IMG/VR virus record: IMGVR_UViG_3300048591_000212
Strand: one strand, 5' to 3'
DNA length: 64,000 bases
Origin: a virus
Lineage: Duplodnaviria; Heunggongvirae; Uroviricota; Caudoviricetes
In this document: one piece after another, positions 25,081-47,927 of the stretch
How the letters are laid out: each line of letters opens with the position of its first letter
Numbering within the stretch: the first letter of the stretch is position 1
Program-made: the position numbers and the translations under genes
Notes under the pieces: model-generated
Seen by the model: only the letters and a program-made list of their open reading frames with translations
Told to the model about the DNA's origin: nothing
Databases searched by the model: none

Positions 25081-27039
25081 ATGAAAAACTTTTCCTCATT
25101 TAATGAAGAACTAAAGATGGCCGAAATTGATGTTCTATCGGATATTCTGGATTCAATTGAACTAATTGCCGATGAATCCTATGAAAGCAATGAGGCTGCT
25201 CTTGATGAGGTTGCTGGATTGCTGGCTCAGGTTGGTCTTTCCTTTAATAAGGAAGAAGTTCTGTCGGCCCTAGAAGCCGGGGAAGAGATTGAGATTGCCT
25301 TGGTAGATTCTGAGGATTCCGAAGAAACCAGTCTGGAAGTCTTTGTGGATGAGTCACTTGGAAAGAAAATTGATGGTGATATTGTTCTTCGAGTCGAACC
25401 GGGGTCCGAGGCCGGAAAGATTATTCCGTCTGTGATGATCTATTTCGATGACGAAGGCGCACAGGAATTGGCTGATGTGGAATTTGAGCCAATTGATGAT
25501 TCTGAAGAAGAGGATGATGATGAATCATTAAATGAAGATCCCCATAAAGAAATGCCTTATGATTTTTATGGTTGGATCACACAAAATGAAATAGTCGATT
25601 TAACTGAAATTAGTGGCGCAAGAACTCATGCAAGATTTCCAAAAGAAATAAAAGACAAATATGGAATCGAAGGAAATCATGATCGTTATGATTTTAATCC
25701 AATAAGTTCAACATCATTTTATAAAAAGAATTATGCTAAGGGGTTTTTGAGATGGATGATTCGGCAGGGCAAAATTACATTTGAAAATTCTTTGTTTGAT
25801 GATATGAATAAAATTTCAGAAAAACAGATGGAATTAATTCAGAATTTATGTAAGAAATATGACGATTATCTTCCCGTTGGAATTAGATTAGATTTTCAAA
25901 AATTCAATAATTATGATAAACCCTTCAAAAATTTTGGAAACTTTTTGAAGGAATATAAAAAGAAAATTAAAAGAGAATCCACATTAAATGAAGACCGACA
26001 TTCTCAGATGTCCTATGAAGCCTATGGCTGGATTACTCGAAGGGGTCCAGAGATTGTTTACTTGGATGAAGTCGATGGGGCGGTGTCCCATACCGATTTT
26101 CCATTTGAATTAGAAGACCAATTTGATGGCCTAGTCTATGCCGGGTATGATGCTAATTATCGAAAAGGAAACCTGAGATGGCAGGTTTGGAGGGGATATC
26201 TCACTATTGAGAATTCCATGATAGAATCGAAAACGGATATTCCAGAGAATCAGTTCATGTTAATCAAGGAACTATATGATAAATATGAAGACATGATTCC
26301 GAACGGAATCCGTCTGGATTTCAGTCGAGATACCTATCTAACTGGTTCGGATCTGAGAAAATATGGATCATTTAATGATCTACTTCGGGCCTATAAACAT
26401 GAAAAAGACCCACACAGACTAATTTACAAAAAGACAACAGCAGAGGGAGAAGTAATGAGCAACAAGAAATTTTCTGATTTATTGAGTGAGACGGAAGAGG
26501 ATCTTTTCAAAGACGACCCAGAGGCAGAAGAAGAAACTCCAGAAACACCGGAACCGGAAGAAGAAGATGATGATGGCAACGACGATAAAGAGGAAGAGGA
26601 AGAATCCAAGGTCGAGAAGTATTTGAAAAAGGCCGTCAAGGAACTTGGAAAAGAATTGGACAAGAGTGACGAAGAGTTGTCCGATGAAATGATCGATTCG
26701 ATTACTCTGAATCTCAAGATGGAACTGGAAACTTTGATTAATGGTGAGGAAGAGGAAACCGAGTCCGACGAGCAATCCGAAACTACCAATGAAGTTCCAG
26801 AAGAGGGAACAGAGACTTTGGAACAGCAGGACGCCAATTCCGATGTGATCATTTATGAGGCATTTGAGGCAAAGGATCTCTTTAATGTTATTCTATTTAA
26901 GCCGACTTCAAGACTGACAATCAGTAGAATCTTCAAGGCTCCGTCCACAAAGACTCTCGAAAAGATGGTCAAGGATGAATATCCTGAATTTTTGATTCAG
27001 CATGTGACACCAATTGCGGAGTATTTTCCAGAATTCTAA
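25081..27039 (+). CDS. multi-module internal-head-like polyprotein with two GWxRW modules
   Basis: MKNFSSFNEE start; SLNE|DPH and TLNE|DRH modules; MSNKKFSDLLSE segment; acidic linkers. Confidence 0.7.
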   Translation: MKNFSSFNEELKMAEIDVLSDILDSIELIADESYESNEAALDEVAGLLAQVGLSFNKEEVLSALEAGEEIEIALVDSEDSEETSLEVFVDESLGKKIDGDIVLRVEPGSEAGKIIPSVMIYFDDEGAQELADVEFEPIDDSEEEDDDESLNEDPHKEMPYDFYGWITQNEIVDLTEISGARTHARFPKEIKDKYGIEGNHDRYDFNPISSTSFYKKNYAKGFLRWMIRQGKITFENSLFDDMNKISEKQMELIQNLCKKYDDYLPVGIRLDFQKFNNYDKPFKNFGNFLKEYKKKIKRESTLNEDRHSQMSYEAYGWITRRGPEIVYLDEVDGAVSHTDFPFELEDQFDGLVYAGYDANYRKGNLRWQVWRGYLTIENSMIESKTDIPENQFMLIKELYDKYEDMIPNGIRLDFSRDTYLTGSDLRKYGSFNDLLRAYKHEKDPHRLIYKKTTAEGEVMSNKKFSDLLSETEEDLFKDDPEAEEETPETPEPEEEDDDGNDDKEEEEESKVEKYLKKAVKELGKELDKSDEELSDEMIDSITLNLKMELETLINGEEEETESDEQSETTNEVPEEGTETLEQQDANSDVIIYEAFEAKDLFNVILFKPTSRLTISRIFKAPSTKTLEKMVKDEYPEFLIQHVTPIAEYFPEF

Positions 27040-31369: not shown

Positions 31370-32422
31370 ATGGGAAAACACGCTAGTCCATTTTCATTAG
31401 AGTTTTGGTTGTCTAAAGGTTTGACGCCGGAAGAAGCCGAATATAAAAGAAATTCCATCAGACCAATTAAAAAGGAATACTGGATGGAAAAGGGATTTTC
31501 CGAAGAAGAAGCGACGGCATTAGCTAAAAATAAAAAAGAGCAGAACAATCGCGCTGGCGCTGAAAAGAGTAAAAATAGAACCCAAACCGAAATTAGACAA
31601 GCCAATGCAAGATGTGTTGAATATTGGATTCATCGATACGGACAAACTCCCGAAGAAGCAAGGCTATCGGTGAGCAGACAACAGTCCACATTTTCTCTGG
31701 AAAAGTGTGTATTGAAATATGGAGTCGAAGAGGGTCAACGAATATGGAGCGAACGCCAGCAAAAATGGCAAGACACCCTAAACTCTAAAAGCACAGAAGA
31801 AAGGAAAATCATTGACAAGAAAAAGAAAAGTATAATTTTATATGATAATGTACCAAAAAGCGAAACCATTTCGATTCTCAAAAGAACTAGGAACATGGAT
31901 TTGGTTGAGACGACAGAACAACTAATAAACAAAATTGAAAATGATTTACGAAACAATCCACTCAAAAGATATTATCTTATCGAAAAGTATATTGATGATA
32001 TACCAACAATTCAATTTGAGATTATTGGAGAAGATTCGACATCAATTTTACCGAAAATAAAAGATTTGTTTTCAAAAAAAGCCAATCTCTTAAAGAGAGG
32101 AAACCGACAGGCGTGGAGACGTTGGGAGAAGGAAGGATTGCTCAGGTCGTCATTTGAAATATATTTTTATGATAGATTTACGGACAAATTTCCAGATAAA
32201 GAAATTAAAATCGATAAGAAATATCCGAACTCTTCAATGAGATATGACTTTTCATTTGATGATAAATTTGTGGAAATATGTCCCTTATATGGAGTAGACA
32301 AAAAATATACAACGAAAATGCAAAAGAAGAAACAATTATTTGGATGTGTTCTTCTTTCTAATATTGAACAAATAGATCGTTTTATTGACACTTATGAAAA
32401 CAACATTAAAAAACATAATTGA
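31370..32422 (+). CDS. free-standing homing endonuclease (PD-(D/E)xK / Vsr-like C-domain)
   Basis: Repeated EYW..kG.seEEA helical units; C-terminal RSSFE..RYDF..KFVEI; sits between the split-intein halves. Confidence 0.75.
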   Translation: MGKHASPFSLEFWLSKGLTPEEAEYKRNSIRPIKKEYWMEKGFSEEEATALAKNKKEQNNRAGAEKSKNRTQTEIRQANARCVEYWIHRYGQTPEEARLSVSRQQSTFSLEKCVLKYGVEEGQRIWSERQQKWQDTLNSKSTEERKIIDKKKKSIILYDNVPKSETISILKRTRNMDLVETTEQLINKIENDLRNNPLKRYYLIEKYIDDIPTIQFEIIGEDSTSILPKIKDLFSKKANLLKRGNRQAWRRWEKEGLLRSSFEIYFYDRFTDKFPDKEIKIDKKYPNSSMRYDFSFDDKFVEICPLYGVDKKYTTKMQKKKQLFGCVLLSNIEQIDRFIDTYENNIKKHN

Positions 32423-32762
32423 CTTCTATAATGAATATCCAGAAGAAATTGGCAACATTTCAGTATTGGGTCGCTTTGGTTATAAAACCATTGAGTTTGC
32501 TGACACCACGGCCTTCGATAGTGAAGTCATTCGCGTCGAAACGGAGTCAGGAAAATTCATAGAAGGTTCACCAGAACACTTATTACTCAGTGAAGACAAT
32601 TGGAAAAAGATTAATGAGTTATCCGTCGGCATGTGTATTGAAACTGAATTCGGCCCCGAAGAAGTAGTATCAATTTTGAGACTACCAGAAACAGAAGACC
32701 TTTATGATTTACAGGTTGCCGATGTCAAGGAATTTTACGCAAATGGCATTGTGTCACACAAT
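32394..32762 (+). mobile_element. split intein C-half in gp46
   Basis: Block B EGSPEHLLL; blocks F/G LYDLQV..FYANGIVSHN; +1 residue Ser. Confidence 0.9.
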
Positions 32763-34361
32763 TCGACCTTCATCGAGGCCATTACTTTTGCCCTGTACGG
32801 AAAACCATTTCGAAATATCAACAAGCCTCAGCTAGTCAATAGTCGTAATGGTGGAGACCTTCTTACTGAAATTGAATTTTCTACCAATGGCAAATCATAT
32901 AAAGTAATTCGAGGAATCAAGCCCAATATTTTCGAAGTCTATGAAAACGGTAAACTACTGAACCAACCATCCGAATCCAAGGACTATCAGGATATTCTTG
33001 AGAACAAGATTCTGAAAATGAATTACCGGGCCTTTACTCATATCGTGGTCATTGGAAATGCAATTCATACTCCGTTCATGCAGTTGAAACCAGCCGAGCG
33101 TCGAGGAATTATCGAGAATCTTCTGGATATTGATATATTTTCGAAAATGAATGTTGTCCTTAAACAGCAGATATCCGACCTGAAGATTCAATTAGACGAA
33201 TGTCAGACCGAGCATCGGCTGGTCTCCGAGAAGATCAAAATTCATGAAAAGACTCTTCAAAATTCTCGAAATAATATCGACGCCAAGATCGATAAGAATA
33301 ATATGGATATTCAAAATCTTCAGAATACCCTAGAGATCAAGCAGTCCAATCTAGCCGAACTTCAACAAAATGTTCTGGATATTTCAGAATATTCTAAGAC
33401 GCTCAAGAAGACCAATGAGAAAATTATGAAGGTGCGGGAATTTCGGTCATCCTTTGAAACTACCATTCGAGCCTTGAATAAGGATATTGAGTTTGTGTCA
33501 AATAATGAGGAGTGTTCCTCTTGTCATAGAGAGTTTTCTGAGTACTACCGGGCCGAGTTTCTGTCCGAGAAAAATCAGGAACACCAGAAGTTTACAGAGG
33601 CTCTATCCAAGTCCGAGGATAAACTGAAAGAATTGTTGGACGAATTGAACTCAATTTCAGAAATTATGTCCCAACAGAACGACATTTCACAGAGAATTAC
33701 TAAAATTCAGGCCGATATCTCCTCTATTGAAAAAGAGATTTCGGTTATCATGAAGACGAATGAAACTCTGCTGAAGGAGAGCCGAAATGATCTGAAAGAG
33801 ACTCAGGCCGAATATGATGCCCTCAATTCGGAACTGGCGGAATATTCCAGAAAAAAGGAATCCCTGATTGAGGAAAATCATATTCATTCTCTGGTATCAG
33901 TGATGCTCAAGGATGACGGAATTAAGACCCGAATTATCAAGAACTACTTGCCGGAAATGAATCGTCTGATTAATCGGTACATGAAGATGATGGACTTTCA
34001 TGTGTCCTTTAATCTGGAAGAGAACTTTTCCGAGACAATCAAGACCGCCAACAGGGAATCCTTTTCCTATAATTCCTTTTCAGAGGGAGAAAAAATGCGA
34101 ATCGACTTGGCGATTCTGTTCACATGGAGAGAAATCGCCCGCATCAAGAACTCTGCCAACACGAATCTTCTGATTCTGGACGAAGTATTTGATTCCTCTC
34201 TGGACTCCAATGGCATCGAGGACTTCATGAGAATCATCAATTCCTTTGGACATAAGATGAATATTTTCATCATTTCCCACAAGGAAGAAGTGCTGTCGGA
34301 TCGGTTTCAGAATACAATTAAGTTCGAAAAAGTGAAGGGCTTTACTCGAAGAGTGGCCTAA
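32394..34361 (+). CDS. gp46: 123-aa C-intein plus C-terminal piece of gp46
   Basis: VSHN|STFIEAITFALYGKPFRNINKPQLVN; coiled coil, CSSC hook, FSEGEKMRIDLA, LILDEVFDSSLD, ISH. Confidence 0.95.
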   Translation: MKTTLKNIIDFYNEYPEEIGNISVLGRFGYKTIEFADTTAFDSEVIRVETESGKFIEGSPEHLLLSEDNWKKINELSVGMCIETEFGPEEVVSILRLPETEDLYDLQVADVKEFYANGIVSHNSTFIEAITFALYGKPFRNINKPQLVNSRNGGDLLTEIEFSTNGKSYKVIRGIKPNIFEVYENGKLLNQPSESKDYQDILENKILKMNYRAFTHIVVIGNAIHTPFMQLKPAERRGIIENLLDIDIFSKMNVVLKQQISDLKIQLDECQTEHRLVSEKIKIHEKTLQNSRNNIDAKIDKNNMDIQNLQNTLEIKQSNLAELQQNVLDISEYSKTLKKTNEKIMKVREFRSSFETTIRALNKDIEFVSNNEECSSCHREFSEYYRAEFLSEKNQEHQKFTEALSKSEDKLKELLDELNSISEIMSQQNDISQRITKIQADISSIEKEISVIMKTNETLLKESRNDLKETQAEYDALNSELAEYSRKKESLIEENHIHSLVSVMLKDDGIKTRIIKNYLPEMNRLINRYMKMMDFHVSFNLEENFSETIKTANRESFSYNSFSEGEKMRIDLAILFTWREIARIKNSANTNLLILDEVFDSSLDSNGIEDFMRIINSFGHKMNIFIISHKEEVLSDRFQNTIKFEKVKGFTRRVA

Positions 34362-36173: not shown

Positions 36174-36653
36174 TTAATTATCTGAAATCAGTCGATAAAA
36201 GACATGATTGCCAACAATCTTTGTCTTTTCTATGTTCATTCTCCACCCCGGTTCAATACTCTTTTCATGAAAAAATGTGGAACCATTGGTAGGATCTTTA
36301 TATAGATTGAAGTTTTCGGCAACGTACAACGACTCTTTCCATCGCCAGTCTTGGTCAGAAATGGGATGAAGGCTCTGATAATAATCGTTGCTCGTCCAGC
36401 TAAATTGCTTTCGTTGGTAAACTACTTCACAATAATTCACTGGAAATACTGAAGATTTCATTCTGTTATGTGTCACATAGGCAACAGCAATCTTTCCCTG
36501 AATCGACTCAGAGCCGGATTCATAGAAGATATTTTTTGCCAGACATGACAGATTTTTGGTTCTTTCGGCTTTCGAGGAGTCTGTTCCGGTCATGGTCTGA
36601 GAACCAATTCCGGCGCAGAACACCAAGGCCAAGAGAACTACTTTAAGTAACAT
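36174..36653 (-). CDS. SleB-like cell-wall hydrolase
   Basis: Signal peptide; CLAKNIFYESGSE..GKIAVAYVTHNR..CEVVYQ..QFSW..GSTFFH..VGNHVFY. Confidence 0.9.
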   Translation of the reverse strand: MLLKVVLLALVFCAGIGSQTMTGTDSSKAERTKNLSCLAKNIFYESGSESIQGKIAVAYVTHNRMKSSVFPVNYCEVVYQRKQFSWTSNDYYQSLHPISDQDWRWKESLYVAENFNLYKDPTNGSTFFHEKSIEPGWRMNIEKTKIVGNHVFYRLISDN

Positions 36654-36687
36654 TATTGAATTTTCTTCTCCTATTCTCTAAAAGTAA

Positions 36688-36915
36688 AAGGGGATTTTCT
36701 GTTGCCGAGATATCCCCTGAATCTCCGCTTTTGCTACTGTTTAGGCAGCATAGGCATATGCAAAATTGTTATTTGCAGTTATGGTTTTGCTCTAATTTAA
36801 CGTGAGTGCTTCACGATTAGCTCCTCTTTCCTATCTACGCCCGTCGAAACCTTTTCGCCCCCAAAGCGATGAATAAGTGGAGGCGGCGGAAGTCGAATCC
36901 GCGTCCGAACGTCCT
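36688..36915 (-). ncRNA. ssrA: circularly permuted (two-piece) tmRNA
   Basis: The 3' part (T-arm GCGGA-TTCGACT-TCCGC, CGCCTCC-A73; 36902-36878) precedes the 5' end GGGGGCGAAAAGGTTTCGAC (36862); G3-U70; AUAACU resume context; tag ANNNFAYAYAA* at 36776-36741. Confidence 0.93.
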
Positions 36916-37401
36916 TCAGTCTGAATCAACACTAATGTATTTTTCTGGTATAATATCCAGAAATTCCTTGTAATCGACCTCTTCCAATTGTTCTTTTTTA
37001 TGTGGACTTGAGACCGTAAATGTCTTAATTAGATTCTTGTGTTTATTGACGAGGCCCAAGAGAGCCACTATCTGCTTCTTCGGTGCCCGTCTTATTGGAT
37101 TCGCGATCTCCATATCAAAATCTTTTCCGGTGTCAATGTACCAATGAATCCAGCCAATTCTCATGGGTGCGTCTGGGTGAGCGGTGATGTCTTCTTCTGC
37201 GAATTTATTAAAAAACTCACGCTCCTTTTCAGTCAACAGATCGGAGTGTTCCTGAATTATCTCAAAAAGTAGATCACCATGAGAATTTGACTTGGACGGA
37301 TTGCCGTCAAACACCACTCCATTCAAAGAGATATAACCCCACTCCAAATAGTATTTTGTGAAATGGACAACCTCGTTAAGAAAATTGGAAAACTTTTTCA
37401 T
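36916..37401 (-). CDS. stand-alone GWxRW-family protein
   Basis: MKKFSNFLNE; EWGYISLNG..DG..H..GWIHWY; TATAAATA upstream. Confidence 0.75.
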   Translation of the reverse strand: MKKFSNFLNEVVHFTKYYLEWGYISLNGVVFDGNPSKSNSHGDLLFEIIQEHSDLLTEKEREFFNKFAEEDITAHPDAPMRIGWIHWYIDTGKDFDMEIANPIRRAPKKQIVALLGLVNKHKNLIKTFTVSSPHKKEQLEEVDYKEFLDIIPEKYISVDSD

Positions 37402-43735: not shown

Positions 43736-46700
43736 TCATTTCAGCGGACATGCTCCCTCGCATTCCAATGATTCCAAGTCTCCACCAGAAAGATCCTTTT
43801 CGAAAATATCATCAATGGTTTTGAGATTTTTGATCATTGATAGATATTGTTCTTCAGTAATCTCTTCGTATGGAGCCTGAGCAAAGCCGTGTTCGGAGTG
43901 AAGAAGAAAGGAAACCGACTTAATTGAATTATCATAATTATTCTTCAGCCACTCCTTAATTTCCGGCAACTCCTCCTTTCGATAATACACCGTCACTGAA
44001 ATTGCATTATCGGCCCAGACCGTCTGAATCTGTTTCACCAACTCCAACTGAGTCACGGCTGACATATTTTTGGAAATAAGAGTGTCCTTCAATTCACACG
44101 GAAATTCTACGACAACGGTGCTTCTGTCCTCGGACCCATCAAAGTTTTTCACATATTCAATATGGTATCCCATGTCCCTACAGACCTTTACCAACTTGTC
44201 ATCGGACGACATGCGAATTCTACGAATATAGTGTTCCGAAAAGCCGGGGTGAATTCCGGGTGTCGCTCCAGCCAACAGAGAAAGAGTTCCACTCGGTTTC
44301 ACAAGAGTCAGACGAATCGATTCGGGCCAGCCATTCAGCTTGGACCATTCCTTGTCGAATTTTTTCAGTTCTCTATAGACTTCATCCAACCACTCAATTT
44401 TGTCAAATGATTGGCAAATTCCAGTAATACCCAAACCAACTCTCATATTCTTGTGGACAATATTATTGGTCTTTTTGTGAAGGTATGGCATGGCAGCGAT
44501 AGCTTTTTGAGTCTTGTACAGAAGTTTAGCCGCCCGAATAGTCTCTTCCTTCGACTGTAAGTTGTTCAAAAATAAGTCACTTAGGTCGCACGTTTCTCCG
44601 TCAGCCAATGGTGTCTCTCCACAATTTGGTAAATATACTCCATCGTATATTTTGTTTCCATACTTATTATTCTTAATTGATGTAATAATTCCTACGGTAT
44701 GATTATCATCAACCGTGATATTATAGACCGTCTGCTTTTCTTGCAGTAATTCGACAGACACCACCTTATGATTATAGGTCTCGGCAACGCTCACCAATTC
44801 CTTGTAACCAGAAAACATTGTTTTGGACCCAAACCGAATCGGAACATTTTGTTCCCGACACTTCTGCTCCCATGTCTTTTTGAGAACTCTTCCGTTCTGC
44901 TCTCTTAGTTGGAAATAGATATCCAACTGTTGCTTCTTCTTTTGGGCGGATTCATTTTCGAAATAATTTCTCAATTCGGCCTTTCTCTTTTTGTTGACTG
45001 GTGAATTGGGCCGACCATTTCTATGTGCTAAAGCATTTTGAACACTGGCATAGGCCCGTTCTCTTTCCTGATAATTAATCCAAAATTCCGAACCATCATA
45101 TTCATCATATCTCTTGACCAAACACACACCATTTTCGATCTTGGCATCATAGCCCTGTTGAATTGCTTTTTGATATGTCTTTACTACTCTCGGATCAATA
45201 TTAACAATGGATTCAAAGCCACACTCAATTGCGGCCCATTTTGCTAAATCCGAAGGCGTTGCGAACCAATCGGTTCTTCTCCACTCAGAAAAGGAACTCG
45301 GCACTCCAGTTTCTTTGGAAAAATTTTCCCACTCTTTTGTAGAAAATCTTCTTCCGAGAGTCCTAGTCAAATCCAGAGCGGCCTTTTCTATGTCAGAATT
45401 CGAAAAGCCAGAATATTTTCCGTTCTTTTCTCCCTGAGTGTCCATTGAGGCATGAAGGGCACAGTGATCAGAAAAAGTCATAATTTCAAGATTTTCTGGT
45501 CTATTATCAAATGAATCATAGTTCTTGCGGTGAACGACCAATCCTCCGCTTATCCAGCCATTCTTTTGCTCTTCATCATGTCGAGCCTTCCATTTTTCTG
45601 CCTCAAAAAACTGAGAAATCAACCTATGTTCGAATAATCGTTTATTTTTCATATTAATAGAATCAGTATGAACCATAAAGTATTGTTTTCTGTTTTGTTG
45701 AGAGATTTTCTCTGGAGCTTTCCGAAAATGAAACAGGCTGTCATTCTTCTGAAGATCCTTTGCCAACTTCACTTCACCACCCAGAAGACATACTTTGTGA
45801 TCTGGAGTAACATCAAAATGAGAACCATTATCCAAAGTCACCCGAACAATATTCTTATTATATCCAGTCACTCTTGGATTGCGGCCCATTTTAATTGAGA
45901 CCTCTCCAGTATTGGGATCAACCGAATAAACAGGAACATCATTTCCTGTCTCGGCCAATTCTCGAATAGTAACAGAATTTCGTCCATCGGCTACTGCAAC
46001 GAGAGTGTCACCCGAAAAACACGGATTCAGGCCCTCACAATTATCCTTCTGTAATTCTCCCAATCTTCCGAATTTTTGGGTCAATGGAAGATTAAAGAAA
46101 CCATAGGGTTCTCCATTTCCGTTATATCCCTCCCATACACTCGGAAGAATATAATCATAGCTGTCGGCATAAATTGTGTTATTCGACATTGCCCGCCAGT
46201 TTGGAATATTTCCCAAATCCCATCTCTTCGCCCTCAAAAACAGAAAGTCATCCGCATCACCCAGAGCAATAGTGGCAGTTCTTCTTACGTTGCCACTAAC
46301 CACAATTTTACCAATAATATTACAAATATCCAAAACATCCAAAGAGCGCAGTTTCTTTCCTTCCCGGCTTTTCAGAATTTTGGAAATAGTTTCAATTCCT
46401 TCAATTAGGCTACCGGGGCCGGATGCCACACCACCAAATCCCTTGATCTTTTCTCCGTATCCCCGAACCAGAATAGTCGAATATGTAAATGATTCTCCAG
46501 TCTCAAGAAAAGCCTTAAAGGTCTTGCGGAGAAGTTTCACCCAACCTTCACGAGAATCAGGAACAATGAAATCGGCATCATTGGTTTTCTGGTGAGTAAT
46601 AGTCACATTTTTCTTCACTCTGGGTAGCTCATGAATATCTTCCTTTTTAACCGAGAACCCAACACCGCCACCCAACATTAGATTCTCAAAGAGGAAACAA

Positions 46701-47092
46701 AAATCCTCGTACTCCGAAATACGAGTAAAGAAACAATTAATCAAAGAGTTGGCACCAAATCTTTTAATCGTGCTGGTTCCAAGTTGCCACAACATTCTTC
46801 CGGCAAGAGTACACTTCAGATTAAACATCAAATCAAAAAGTTCTTGGGCTTCTTCTGAAGTATACTTCGCTCCGATCTCCTGAGCGCCATTAATGCAACG
46901 GGCAATTGTCTGCCACCACTCCTCGGTGATTTCTCCATCGGGCAACAGTCGAGCATAGGTCCGTTTATATACCAAATACCCAAGTGAGTTAAATCCCCAC
47001 TTTGGATTCTTTCCAACATACTTTCTCAAAAAGTCTTCCGGCAAAATGTCTGAAACGAAAGTTGAAAGGTAATTATCGTGAATTGTTGTCAT
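43736..47092 (-). CDS. nrdJ: class II (B12-dependent, monomeric-type) ribonucleotide reductase with intein
   Basis: VYKRTYAR, AGRMLW, NCF, GGGVGF, PDSREGW, VRRTATIALG, NP|C GE, KPSGTLSLL, QAPYE; likely start 47092. Confidence 0.95.
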   Translation of the reverse strand: MTTIHDNYLSTFVSDILPEDFLRKYVGKNPKWGFNSLGYLVYKRTYARLLPDGEITEEWWQTIARCINGAQEIGAKYTSEEAQELFDLMFNLKCTLAGRMLWQLGTSTIKRFGANSLINCFFTRISEYEDFCFLFENLMLGGGVGFSVKKEDIHELPRVKKNVTITHQKTNDADFIVPDSREGWVKLLRKTFKAFLETGESFTYSTILVRGYGEKIKGFGGVASGPGSLIEGIETISKILKSREGKKLRSLDVLDICNIIGKIVVSGNVRRTATIALGDADDFLFLRAKRWDLGNIPNWRAMSNNTIYADSYDYILPSVWEGYNGNGEPYGFFNLPLTQKFGRLGELQKDNCEGLNPCFSGDTLVAVADGRNSVTIRELAETGNDVPVYSVDPNTGEVSIKMGRNPRVTGYNKNIVRVTLDNGSHFDVTPDHKVCLLGGEVKLAKDLQKNDSLFHFRKAPEKISQQNRKQYFMVHTDSINMKNKRLFEHRLISQFFEAEKWKARHDEEQKNGWISGGLVVHRKNYDSFDNRPENLEIMTFSDHCALHASMDTQGEKNGKYSGFSNSDIEKAALDLTRTLGRRFSTKEWENFSKETGVPSSFSEWRRTDWFATPSDLAKWAAIECGFESIVNIDPRVVKTYQKAIQQGYDAKIENGVCLVKRYDEYDGSEFWINYQERERAYASVQNALAHRNGRPNSPVNKKRKAELRNYFENESAQKKKQQLDIYFQLREQNGRVLKKTWEQKCREQNVPIRFGSKTMFSGYKELVSVAETYNHKVVSVELLQEKQTVYNITVDDNHTVGIITSIKNNKYGNKIYDGVYLPNCGETPLADGETCDLSDLFLNNLQSKEETIRAAKLLYKTQKAIAAMPYLHKKTNNIVHKNMRVGLGITGICQSFDKIEWLDEVYRELKKFDKEWSKLNGWPESIRLTLVKPSGTLSLLAGATPGIHPGFSEHYIRRIRMSSDDKLVKVCRDMGYHIEYVKNFDGSEDRSTVVVEFPCELKDTLISKNMSAVTQLELVKQIQTVWADNAISVTVYYRKEELPEIKEWLKNNYDNSIKSVSFLLHSEHGFAQAPYEEITEEQYLSMIKNLKTIDDIFEKDLSGGDLESLECEGACPLK
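44624..46021 (-). mobile_element. contiguous 466-aa intein with HNH domain
   Basis: CFSGDT..VTPDH..EHRL..VVHRKN..DNRPENL..VYNITVDDNH..YLPN|C, inserted at the catalytic NPC motif. Confidence 0.92.
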
Positions 47093-47108
47093 ATTTGTCT
47101 CTTGTAAA

Positions 47109-47927
47109 TTAGTTCTCCTGTGTATTTTCCATAATGTATCGAATTGAAATCCAGTCATTAAAATTTGCAAATCTGGAAGCCTTGGGTGAGCAGACGGCAA
47201 CATGCTCAAATGGTGACAAATGCGGAGGGTTTGCGGTTCTCAGTTTTTCATATAACTCTAGATCCTTATCCACATCAATCTTTCCGTCATGGGACAGATA
47301 GGATGTTCTGGCGCACCGGGCCACGCCGATTTTCGTTAGCTCCTCAATATTCTCTTCTTCTTCGGTATAGCCGTCCACAATATAAGGAATATGATAATGT
47401 CTTGAAATCGGAGTCGATGAAATATAGGAGTCCCGAACCGCATTAGCAAAGGCTTGCATTTCCGGTTGGGCATCCGGGTGGCATCTCTGGTTGAAAAAAT
47501 TCTGAATCTCCGTGGTAGTAAAAACAATCGTATGCCACATAAATGGTTCCAGTAGGCGATTAATTACTTGTTTGTGAAGTCCGAGTTTTGTCAATCTTTG
47601 AGCAGACTCAACCGCATTGTCGCGGGCCTTTAACCATTCTTTCTGACACTCAGAAATTAGTTCGGGCGGAAGTTCTTCTCTGGCAGACATTCCGGCCTGA
47701 TTTTTGCCCCAATGAAGCGGCATCGCTAGATCATTTAGTACTCTTTCAATTTGCTTTGTAATCGGAATGGCTCTTGATGATGCCGAATTGCGGCTGTGCG
47801 CTCGGTGCGCATTTTTTTCTGGAAGAATAAATCTGTGCATTCGTCCTTCAAATGTTGTGATCCGAGTTCCGGTATAAGGGTTGGTACTATCTAAGATCAC
47901 TTTGGCAGTCGGCTTGCTATATTCCAT
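47109..47927 (-). CDS. thyX: ThyX-like flavin-dependent thymidylate synthase
   Basis: HRFI..AHRAHSRNSASSRAIP, KQVINRLLEPF, FFNQR.H.DAQPEM, RCARTSY, HLSPFEH. Confidence 0.85.
   Translation of the reverse strand: MEYSKPTAKVILDSTNPYTGTRITTFEGRMHRFILPEKNAHRAHSRNSASSRAIPITKQIERVLNDLAMPLHWGKNQAGMSAREELPPELISECQKEWLKARDNAVESAQRLTKLGLHKQVINRLLEPFMWHTIVFTTTEIQNFFNQRCHPDAQPEMQAFANAVRDSYISSTPISRHYHIPYIVDGYTEEEENIEELTKIGVARCARTSYLSHDGKIDVDKDLELYEKLRTANPPHLSPFEHVAVCSPKASRFANFNDWISIRYIMENTQEN

Follow-up and report, generated by a model that had tools for sequence, protein, structure and literature searches.

The stretch of DNA analysed here, hereafter the window, is 64 kb long and carries genes for a T4-type DNA polymerase (phrog_262, E 1e-294), a UvsX-like recombinase, a DnaB-like helicase, a tail fibre protein, an intein-bearing ribonucleotide reductase, a GP88-family protein and a cell wall hydrolase. 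Among isolated phages its polymerase is closest to those of cyanomyophages, with 45-46% identity at best, and the GC content of about 40% is even across the locus described below. Inteins touch two genes of the window: the large subunit of the ribonucleotide reductase (43736-47209, minus strand) is split by an intein that includes an HNH endonuclease domain, and a Rad50/SbcC-like gene (32385-34361, plus strand) contains an intein splicing-domain fragment.

A complete circularly permuted tmRNA gene occupies about 36963..36687 of the minus strand. It is the sole gene that ARAGORN calls in the window, as a permuted tmRNA (tmRNA*) at 36650..36967 with the tag ANNNFAYAYAA. The Rfam model RF04321 (tmRNA_permuted) matches over its full length (model positions 1-213) at 36936..36741, scoring 124.2 bits where the cut-off is 47 (E 8e-24), and RF01849 (alpha_tmRNA) matches at 36977..36687 with 66.6 bits against a cut-off of 50; both scores are far above chance. 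RF01850 (beta_tmRNA) gives 78.5 bits, the top bit score in the tmRNA clan, under its own cut-off of 84. An earlier note, made from the letters of the window, had proposed a circularly permuted two-piece tmRNA in a phage and a check of it with ARAGORN and covariance models. The permuted call, the RF04321 score and the setting among phage genes bear this proposal out, and the elements it had listed (P2, T arm, CGCCUCC-A73, missing CCA, GGGGGCG, G3:U70, tag and GGCAAC loop) are all found on the minus strand. The features of the locus, in the direction of the gene, are the following.

36916..37401, minus strand: upstream ORF, 161 aa, no family match; overlaps the tmRNA gene, at the 5′ part of the latter, by its last codons
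36942..36963, minus strand: 5′ hairpin with a 7-bp stem UUUCUGG/CCAGAAA and an 8-nt loop (inverted repeat, present in the MFE and centroid folds)
36878..36936, minus strand: acceptor-piece core (RF04321 alignment)
36936-36932, minus strand: 5′ strand of the outer helix, AUUAG, pairing with CUAAU 36820-36816 (RF04321 structure)
36912-36906, minus strand: 5′ strand of P2, ACGUUCG, pairing with CGGGCGU (ACG-U-UCG with CGG-G-CGU)
36902-36886, minus strand: T arm GCGGA-UUCGACU-UCCGC (RF04321 alignment)
36885-36879, minus strand: 3′ strand of the acceptor stem, CGCCUCC, pairing with GGGGGCG from 36862
36878, minus strand: discriminator A73, followed by CUU where CCA would stand
36863..36877, minus strand: intervening segment CUUAUUCAUCGCUUU, 15 nt, between A73 and G1
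36690..36862, minus strand: coding piece, starting GGGGGCG with G1 at 36862 (RF04321 alignment)
within the coding piece, minus strand: D-loop analogue GGUUUCGAC (RF04321 alignment)
36843-36837, minus strand: 3′ strand of P2, CGGGCGU, pairing with ACGUUCG
36820-36816, minus strand: 3′ strand of the outer helix, CUAAU (RF04321 structure)
36801..36815, minus strand: PK1-position hairpin CGUG-AAGCACU-CACG (also in the consensus structure of RF04321)
36741..36776, minus strand: tag frame with resume codon GCA, peptide ANNNFAYAYAA and stop UAA (ARAGORN)
36732..36750, minus strand: stop-codon helix UGCUGC/GUAGCA, whose loop contains the stop codon (MFE fold)
36690..36725, minus strand: 3′ H-type pseudoknot (covariation over 15 sequences)
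36725-36721 and 36711-36707, minus strand: pseudoknot stem S1, GAGAU/AUCUC, interleaved with S2
36717-36712 and 36695-36690, minus strand: pseudoknot stem S2, GGGGAU/AUCCCC, interleaved with S1
36706-36696, minus strand: pseudoknot loop GGCAACAGAAA, the GGCAAC-loop element
36680..36689, minus strand: U-rich tail UUUUACUUUU following stem 2 of the pseudoknot (read from the sequence)
36174..36653, minus strand: cell wall hydrolase gene (Pfam Hydrolase_2, E 1.6e-22), the downstream neighbour

The tRNA-like domain is complete, with a 7-bp acceptor stem containing G3:U70, the discriminator A73, a T arm and P2 in place of the anticodon arm. The order of its elements is permuted, A73 (36878) being followed by the spacer (36877-36863) and then by G1 (36862). 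The CCA end is not encoded (the acceptor stem is followed by ACUU), as is also the case in 15 of the 47 distinct permuted tmRNA genes compared; the tmRNA database paper likewise states that the CCA position of tmRNA genes is not always CCA (PMC11915505), and an unencoded CCA is usual for the two-piece gene form. Spacers in these 47 genes measure 5-34 nt, the upper bound being imposed by the search pattern; the 15 nt of the window spacer leave no room for a gene.

The limits of the acceptor piece were redrawn with the help of the sole relative found in IMG/VR, L163, which lies within an 80.9-kb T4-like contig; the polymerases of this contig and of the window are 39% identical. The two tmRNAs share about 71% identity over 172 nt. 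In L163 the strands of the outer helix read AAUGUC and GGCAUU (rows read by eye), so that both sides have changed and pairing is kept, which argues that AUUAG/CUAAU joins the two pieces. The 5′ hairpin also has a counterpart in L163, AUCUA/UAGAU (read by eye), and the RF01849 model contains a hairpin at the equivalent position; the acceptor piece probably has its 5′ end in this region, and the hairpin would belong to the mature RNA. The acceptor piece is consequently at least 59 nt long with the outer helix, probably about 86 nt with the hairpin, and overlaps the last 21-48 nt of the upstream ORF. The earlier note had placed the 5′ limit at 36915, which is too short given that both elements lie beyond it; its acceptor piece of about 38 nt and its gene of about 230 nt are corrected correspondingly, the gene extending over about 250-290 nt (318 nt by ARAGORN).

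In the coding piece, the stem at the PK1 position varies between relatives, with CAAGG/CCUUG in L163, CGUAG/CUACG in L088 and UCGUG/CACGA in L104. A search by eye for the second PK1 stem in nine relatives gave at best GCACU/AGAGC with an A-A mismatch, a pairing that is invariant and without covariation, so that support at PK1 extends to the hairpin alone.

At the 3′ end, what had been taken for a terminal hairpin turned out to be an H-type pseudoknot. It is backed by covariation in an alignment of 15 sequences having the loop in common, namely the window, eight viral contigs and six Alphaproteobacteria: 77.8% of the cells are paired against 56.6% after shuffling, a level reached by 0 of 500 shuffles, and cells with double changes number 39 against 13.2 in the shuffles, while control positions obtained by sliding are 44-57% paired. 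We relied on this covariation count since a mononucleotide-shuffle control on pseudoknot stem 2 in single sequences is uninformative, the strands being of low complexity. The loop GGCAACAGAA is invariant in all aligned sequences, the six alphaproteobacterial as well as the nine phage ones. The U-rich tail UUUUACUUUU behind stem 2 may represent the transcript end; the terminator scan did not call this pseudoknot and U-tail, because the loop is too long.

The gene had also been described as minimal, with most pseudoknots lost. Its length is ordinary, the 318 nt given by ARAGORN falling within the 310-486 nt of 65 other permuted phage calls, and the 3′ pseudoknot is present. Moreover, two-piece tmRNAs typically retain just PK1 and PK2 (PMC3985003), so the small number of pseudoknots is the norm of this gene form and nothing special, and fewer pseudoknots do not impair tagging (PMC3968760).

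The comparison with L163, whose tag reads ANNNFAYAFAA (ARAGORN), also bears on the function of the tag. Seven of the 33 tag nucleotides differ between the two genes; six of these differences are synonymous third-position changes and the remaining one replaces Tyr by Phe. The probability that seven random substitutions in the tag would change at most one residue is 0.0003, and the tag consequently appears to be translated. This constitutes good evidence, at the level of codons, that the tag peptide is translated and under purifying selection in the lineage of these two phages. Tags usually end in LAA, and the YAA of the window tag could weaken proteolytic targeting through ClpX recognition.

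The tmRNA-hydrolase locus is conserved in this distant phage: the hydrolase gene lies directly downstream of the tmRNA gene in both, with 35% identity between the two proteins (E 9e-19). When relatives were sought with a profile of the hydrolase, just the L163 contig was recovered. Both genes encode SleB-type hydrolases with a hydrophobic N-terminus (window 36174-36653, minus strand; L163:1042-1497, minus strand). The gap between tmRNA and hydrolase genes holds a canonical terminator hairpin in L163 and the pseudoknot with its U-rich tract alone in the window. On the other side of the gene, the ORF upstream of the L163 tmRNA is not homologous to ORF 36916..37401 of the window. The latter has no relatives found in IMG/VR and shows a weak similarity to repeats of a larger protein encoded in 25081-27039 (23% identity, E 0.001). 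Since the 5′ end of the tmRNA overlaps this protein gene, it is hidden by ORF-based annotation.

A consensus scan of the minus strand upstream of the tmRNA found no sigma-70 promoter, which makes read-through from the upstream gene likely. A promoter-like site is present on the plus strand at 36926-36963 (TCAACA, a 17-nt spacer and a TG-extended TATAAT, 10 of 12 matches); it sits in the palindrome of the tmRNA 5′ hairpin and is directed into ORF 36916..37401 in the antisense sense of that gene. SmpB was not detected in the window, which covers 64 kb of a larger phage genome (tblastn with the SmpB of an Acidocella MAG, G003; best E 0.19), nor in the 80.9-kb L163 contig (PF01668), and function would depend on the SmpB of the host. 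A search for the glutamine riboswitch in 36300-37300 gave nothing above noise with E values up to 10. ARAGORN found no tmRNA in 60 IMG/VR loci carrying a homologue of the GP88-family gene (49-55% identity); the tmRNA is thus dispensable in the wider group and accessory, in line with what Buchholz et al. reported for the phages they studied (PMC9004378).

Among cellular tmRNAs, the two-piece form of Alphaproteobacteria, reportedly described in Caulobacter by Keiler, Shapiro and Williams in 2000, is the one whose layout the window gene follows. It shares with this form (RF01849) the order of acceptor piece, spacer and coding piece, the 5′ hairpin and the helices joining the pieces, as well as the stop-codon helix and, at the 3′ end, the pseudoknot with its GGCAACAGAA loop. 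It differs in its D-loop analogue, GGUUUCGAC, which is the beta and general consensus where the alpha form has GGAUCGAC, in the missing encoded CCA, and in being located in a virus. The betaproteobacterial two-piece tmRNA (RF01850), said to have been described by Sharkady and Williams in 2004, is not a better fit: besides a score below the cut-off of this subtype, the window gene has no terminal hairpin and its pseudoknot loop deviates from the beta consensus. For comparison, a genuine Acidocella tmRNA reaches 265.8 bits on the alpha model; the 66.6 bits of the window gene pass the cut-off but are far below this value, which makes it a divergent member or an offshoot of alpha_tmRNA. In the Acidocella MAG contig, a suhB/mmgR sRNA (L176:1731-1801; RF00519, 54 bits) adjoins the tmRNA gene. 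The independent permutation contemplated by the earlier note is unlikely in view of the alphaproteobacterial-type layout and the invariant loop.

Searches for closer cellular relatives returned little. A search of 185,579 bacterial and archaeal species genomes gave no match to the exact tag ANNNFAYAYAA, and the sole match to the 11-residue form ANNNFAxxxAA there, in a Leptospira MAG, has no tmRNA at that place and was set aside as a chance match; the suggested resemblance to acidobacterial tags thus finds no support, neither the tag nor its looser form being present in a tmRNA of these genomes. A tag pattern tolerating Y or F had 0 matches in metagenome contigs. Likewise, the 5′ coding-piece motif in permuted order has 0 matches in the 185,579 species genomes, and when the gene was compared by blastn with 401 sampled Alphaproteobacteria, short T-arm or loop pieces matched at most. 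The 14-mer of the stop helix combined with the GGCAACAGAA loop is found, among cellular genomes, in six alphaproteobacterial genomes only. Nor did the gene, or the 20 kb surrounding it, match any of 50,697 phage records (blastn/megablast). A standard alphaproteobacterial ssrA as best match, which would have reduced the gene to simple host capture, is not what these comparisons returned; judged by them, the window tmRNA is not a fresh host capture.

Two-piece tmRNA genes of phages are already published and common, and the window gene adds a divergent example. The view that phage tmRNAs are one-piece is outdated: 53 of 133 distinct tmRNAs of public phage genomes are two-piece, of which 50 belong to marine or aquatic phages (Buchholz 2022, PMC9004378). 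The same study described a two-piece tmRNA in the OM43 phage Melnitz, reported that 17 of 47 Melnitz-like contigs carry a permuted tmRNA, and lists as permuted, in its Table S1, those of phiCbK-like Caulobacter phages, HTVC008M, Mosig, S-SSM7, S-CAM1, S-CAM3, S-CRM01 and others. We re-confirmed three isolates, HTVC008M, S-CRM01 and S-SSM7, which score 90.6, 82.5 and 78.5 bits with RF04321, above the cut-off, and are called permuted by ARAGORN. The window resembles the aquatic T4-like myophages Melnitz (a Methylophilales phage), HTVC008M and Mosig (both Pelagibacter phages; PMC9004378) in several respects: a T4-like phage carries a permuted ssrA, SmpB was not seen, occurrence is sporadic (the tmRNA is "common but not defining" in the Melnitz-like group; PMC9004378) and the nearest type is alphaproteobacterial. 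Its tmRNA differs from those of the isolates by the absence of nucleotide similarity detectable with blastn and by its tag (ANFNEYALAA in HTVC008M), and the glutamine riboswitch of Melnitz and Mosig was not found at its locus; the GC content of about 40% and the single relative in IMG/VR are further differences. S-SSM7, S-CRM01 and S-CAM1/3 have the most similar DNA polymerase (45%) and carry permuted tmRNAs as well, but the tags of S-SSM7 and S-CRM01 are long and unrelated and neither locus has the GGCAACAGAA loop motif. The one-piece tmRNAs of mycobacteriophage Bxz1 and cluster C and of Streptomyces phages (Table S1) are also phage-borne ssrA genes, presumably using host SmpB; unlike the window gene, they display the standard order and a four-pseudoknot architecture.

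The same picture emerges from a pattern scan of IMG/VR, in which ARAGORN called a permuted tmRNA in 65 of 88 stretches (L082-L169); the pattern, an acceptor end followed after 4-34 nt by the 5′ coding-piece motif, is restrictive. Tags among these 65 calls are very diverse and include a family of 28-29 residues beginning AE[ND/K]ADTFDF and a 26-residue tag in L157; the GGNSPLQNII calls (L094, L152) may be mis-called frames. Another family, with the tag AENHSSYALAA or AENHGSYALAA (L104, L111, L119, L135 and L178-L184; about 32% GC, IMG/VR and metagenome records up to 107 kb), has the 20-nt 5′ coding-piece motif of the window, which occurs in permuted order in no cellular genome. Seven metagenome matches to this permuted-order motif proved to belong to that other, marine family, ARAGORN calling six of the seven. 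The sole IMG/VR match to a 22-mer of the coding piece was rejected as an unrelated one-piece tmRNA. It lies at L081:895-1246 in a 58.6-kb contig, is of standard form (RF00023, 164 bits, 57% GC), and could belong either to a phage or to host DNA bordering a prophage.

When the subtype models were applied to the window and to L088, L096, L131, L163 and L182, beta was the best every time, with 62-95 bits; L163 and L088 pass the beta cut-off of 84, and the window with the other phage tmRNAs tested stays below. Several phage tmRNAs contain the alpha-type GGCAACAGAA loop despite beta being their best model. Phage two-piece tmRNAs thus look like a divergent group, by these scores poorly fitted by the subtype models. 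As the curated alpha and beta models fit them poorly, they are better annotated by RF04321 or ARAGORN.

Taken together, we consider it probable that the window tmRNA is a functional, phage-encoded two-piece ssrA of alphaproteobacterial-type layout in an uncultured T4-like myophage. By analogy with established tmRNA biology (PMC3985003, PMC11915505), its working could be pictured as follows. A single minus-strand precursor would be made, probably by read-through from the upstream gene, and may end at pseudoknot stem 2 and the U-rich tail. Host RNase P would cleave at G1 (36862), and host tRNA 3′-end enzymes would trim after A73 (36878), CCA being supplied by the host CCA-adding enzyme. The 15-nt spacer would be freed in this way. 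Two base-paired RNAs would remain, an acceptor piece of about 60-86 nt and a coding piece measuring about 175 nt, which acceptor stem, P2 and outer helix would hold together. Host AlaRS would charge the RNA via G3:U70 and, with host SmpB and EF-Tu, it would enter stalled ribosomes, resume translation on GCA and append ANNNFAYAYAA. The phage would probably benefit from more ribosome-rescue capacity at a time when it breaks down host mRNA and fills the cell with its own transcripts.

This extra rescue capacity is the simplest reading, and its main alternative is an altered fate of the tagged proteins. The RNA would then be functional without serving plain rescue: it could compete with the host tmRNA and add an aromatic-rich, YAA-ended tag changing what becomes of the product, for instance by escaping or redirecting ClpXP/SspB, or it could stand in for a host tmRNA which, in the course of infection or through a defence system, is destroyed or inhibited. 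The tag found in no tmRNA of the species genomes searched, its maintenance under purifying selection between two distant phages and the distance of the RNA from cellular tmRNAs would be in line with this, and selective tagging of host proteins has been raised as a possibility (PMC9004378). We nevertheless regard it as unlikely, for the sequence bears no sign of competition or changed fate, and tags ending in a hydrophobic residue and Ala-Ala vary widely among bacteria and the phage genes seen. The form resistant to host RNases or toxins that the earlier note contemplated is speculative. A wider proposal can be made tentatively, and appears possible though doubtful: the window and L163 would represent a phage-resident two-piece lineage, inherited in T4-like phages together with the hydrolase gene, having lost close cellular resemblance and mixing alpha-type with beta/general-type features, and its conserved tag ANNNFAYA[Y/F]AA, in none of the 185,579 genomes, would be tuned to a different product fate.

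The other explanations leave the phage no role or make the gene an oddity. As a frequent integration site, of which fragments occur in prophages (PMC9004378; PMC11915505), ssrA could have been captured recently from a host, for example by a prophage integrating there, and the sporadic occurrence of the gene among related phages would suit a passive passenger. Yet the gene is whole and not a fragment, close cellular matches are missing (0 for the permuted-order motif in the species genomes, short T-arm pieces in the 401 Alphaproteobacteria), the same locus recurs in a phage with a 39%-identical polymerase, and nearly all tag changes are synonymous (6 of 7), all of which renders such a passenger highly improbable. 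That the tmRNA is new in form, independently permuted or unusually minimal, is more improbable still: the low score on every curated subtype could be read so, but the element order, the piece-joining helices and the pseudoknot loop are those of alphaproteobacterial tmRNAs, and both the size and the few pseudoknots are what other permuted genes and the two-piece rule lead one to expect. The common pseudoknot and layout already largely refute this reading. Finally, a bacterial tmRNA gene mis-joined into a phage contig during assembly is scarcely credible. Phage genes stand close on both sides, one of them with overlap, GC is continuous, and the arrangement of tmRNA and hydrolase recurs in an independent contig of a different sample. 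Nothing specific speaks for a chimera; the source is uncultured, and the public sequencing runs containing words of the window comprised a single DNA run, with a small share of them, and no RNA run.

The window gene is a well-dissected addition to a known class and leaves the current understanding of trans-translation unchanged. In the collections searched, it is distinguished by having no close cellular relative and one distant phage relative at the same locus. Lytic T4-like phages that infect aquatic bacteria frequently have a ribosome-rescue RNA of their own. The near-synonymous divergence of the tag between distant phages provides, at the sequence level, evidence that the tags of phage tmRNAs are translated and selected.
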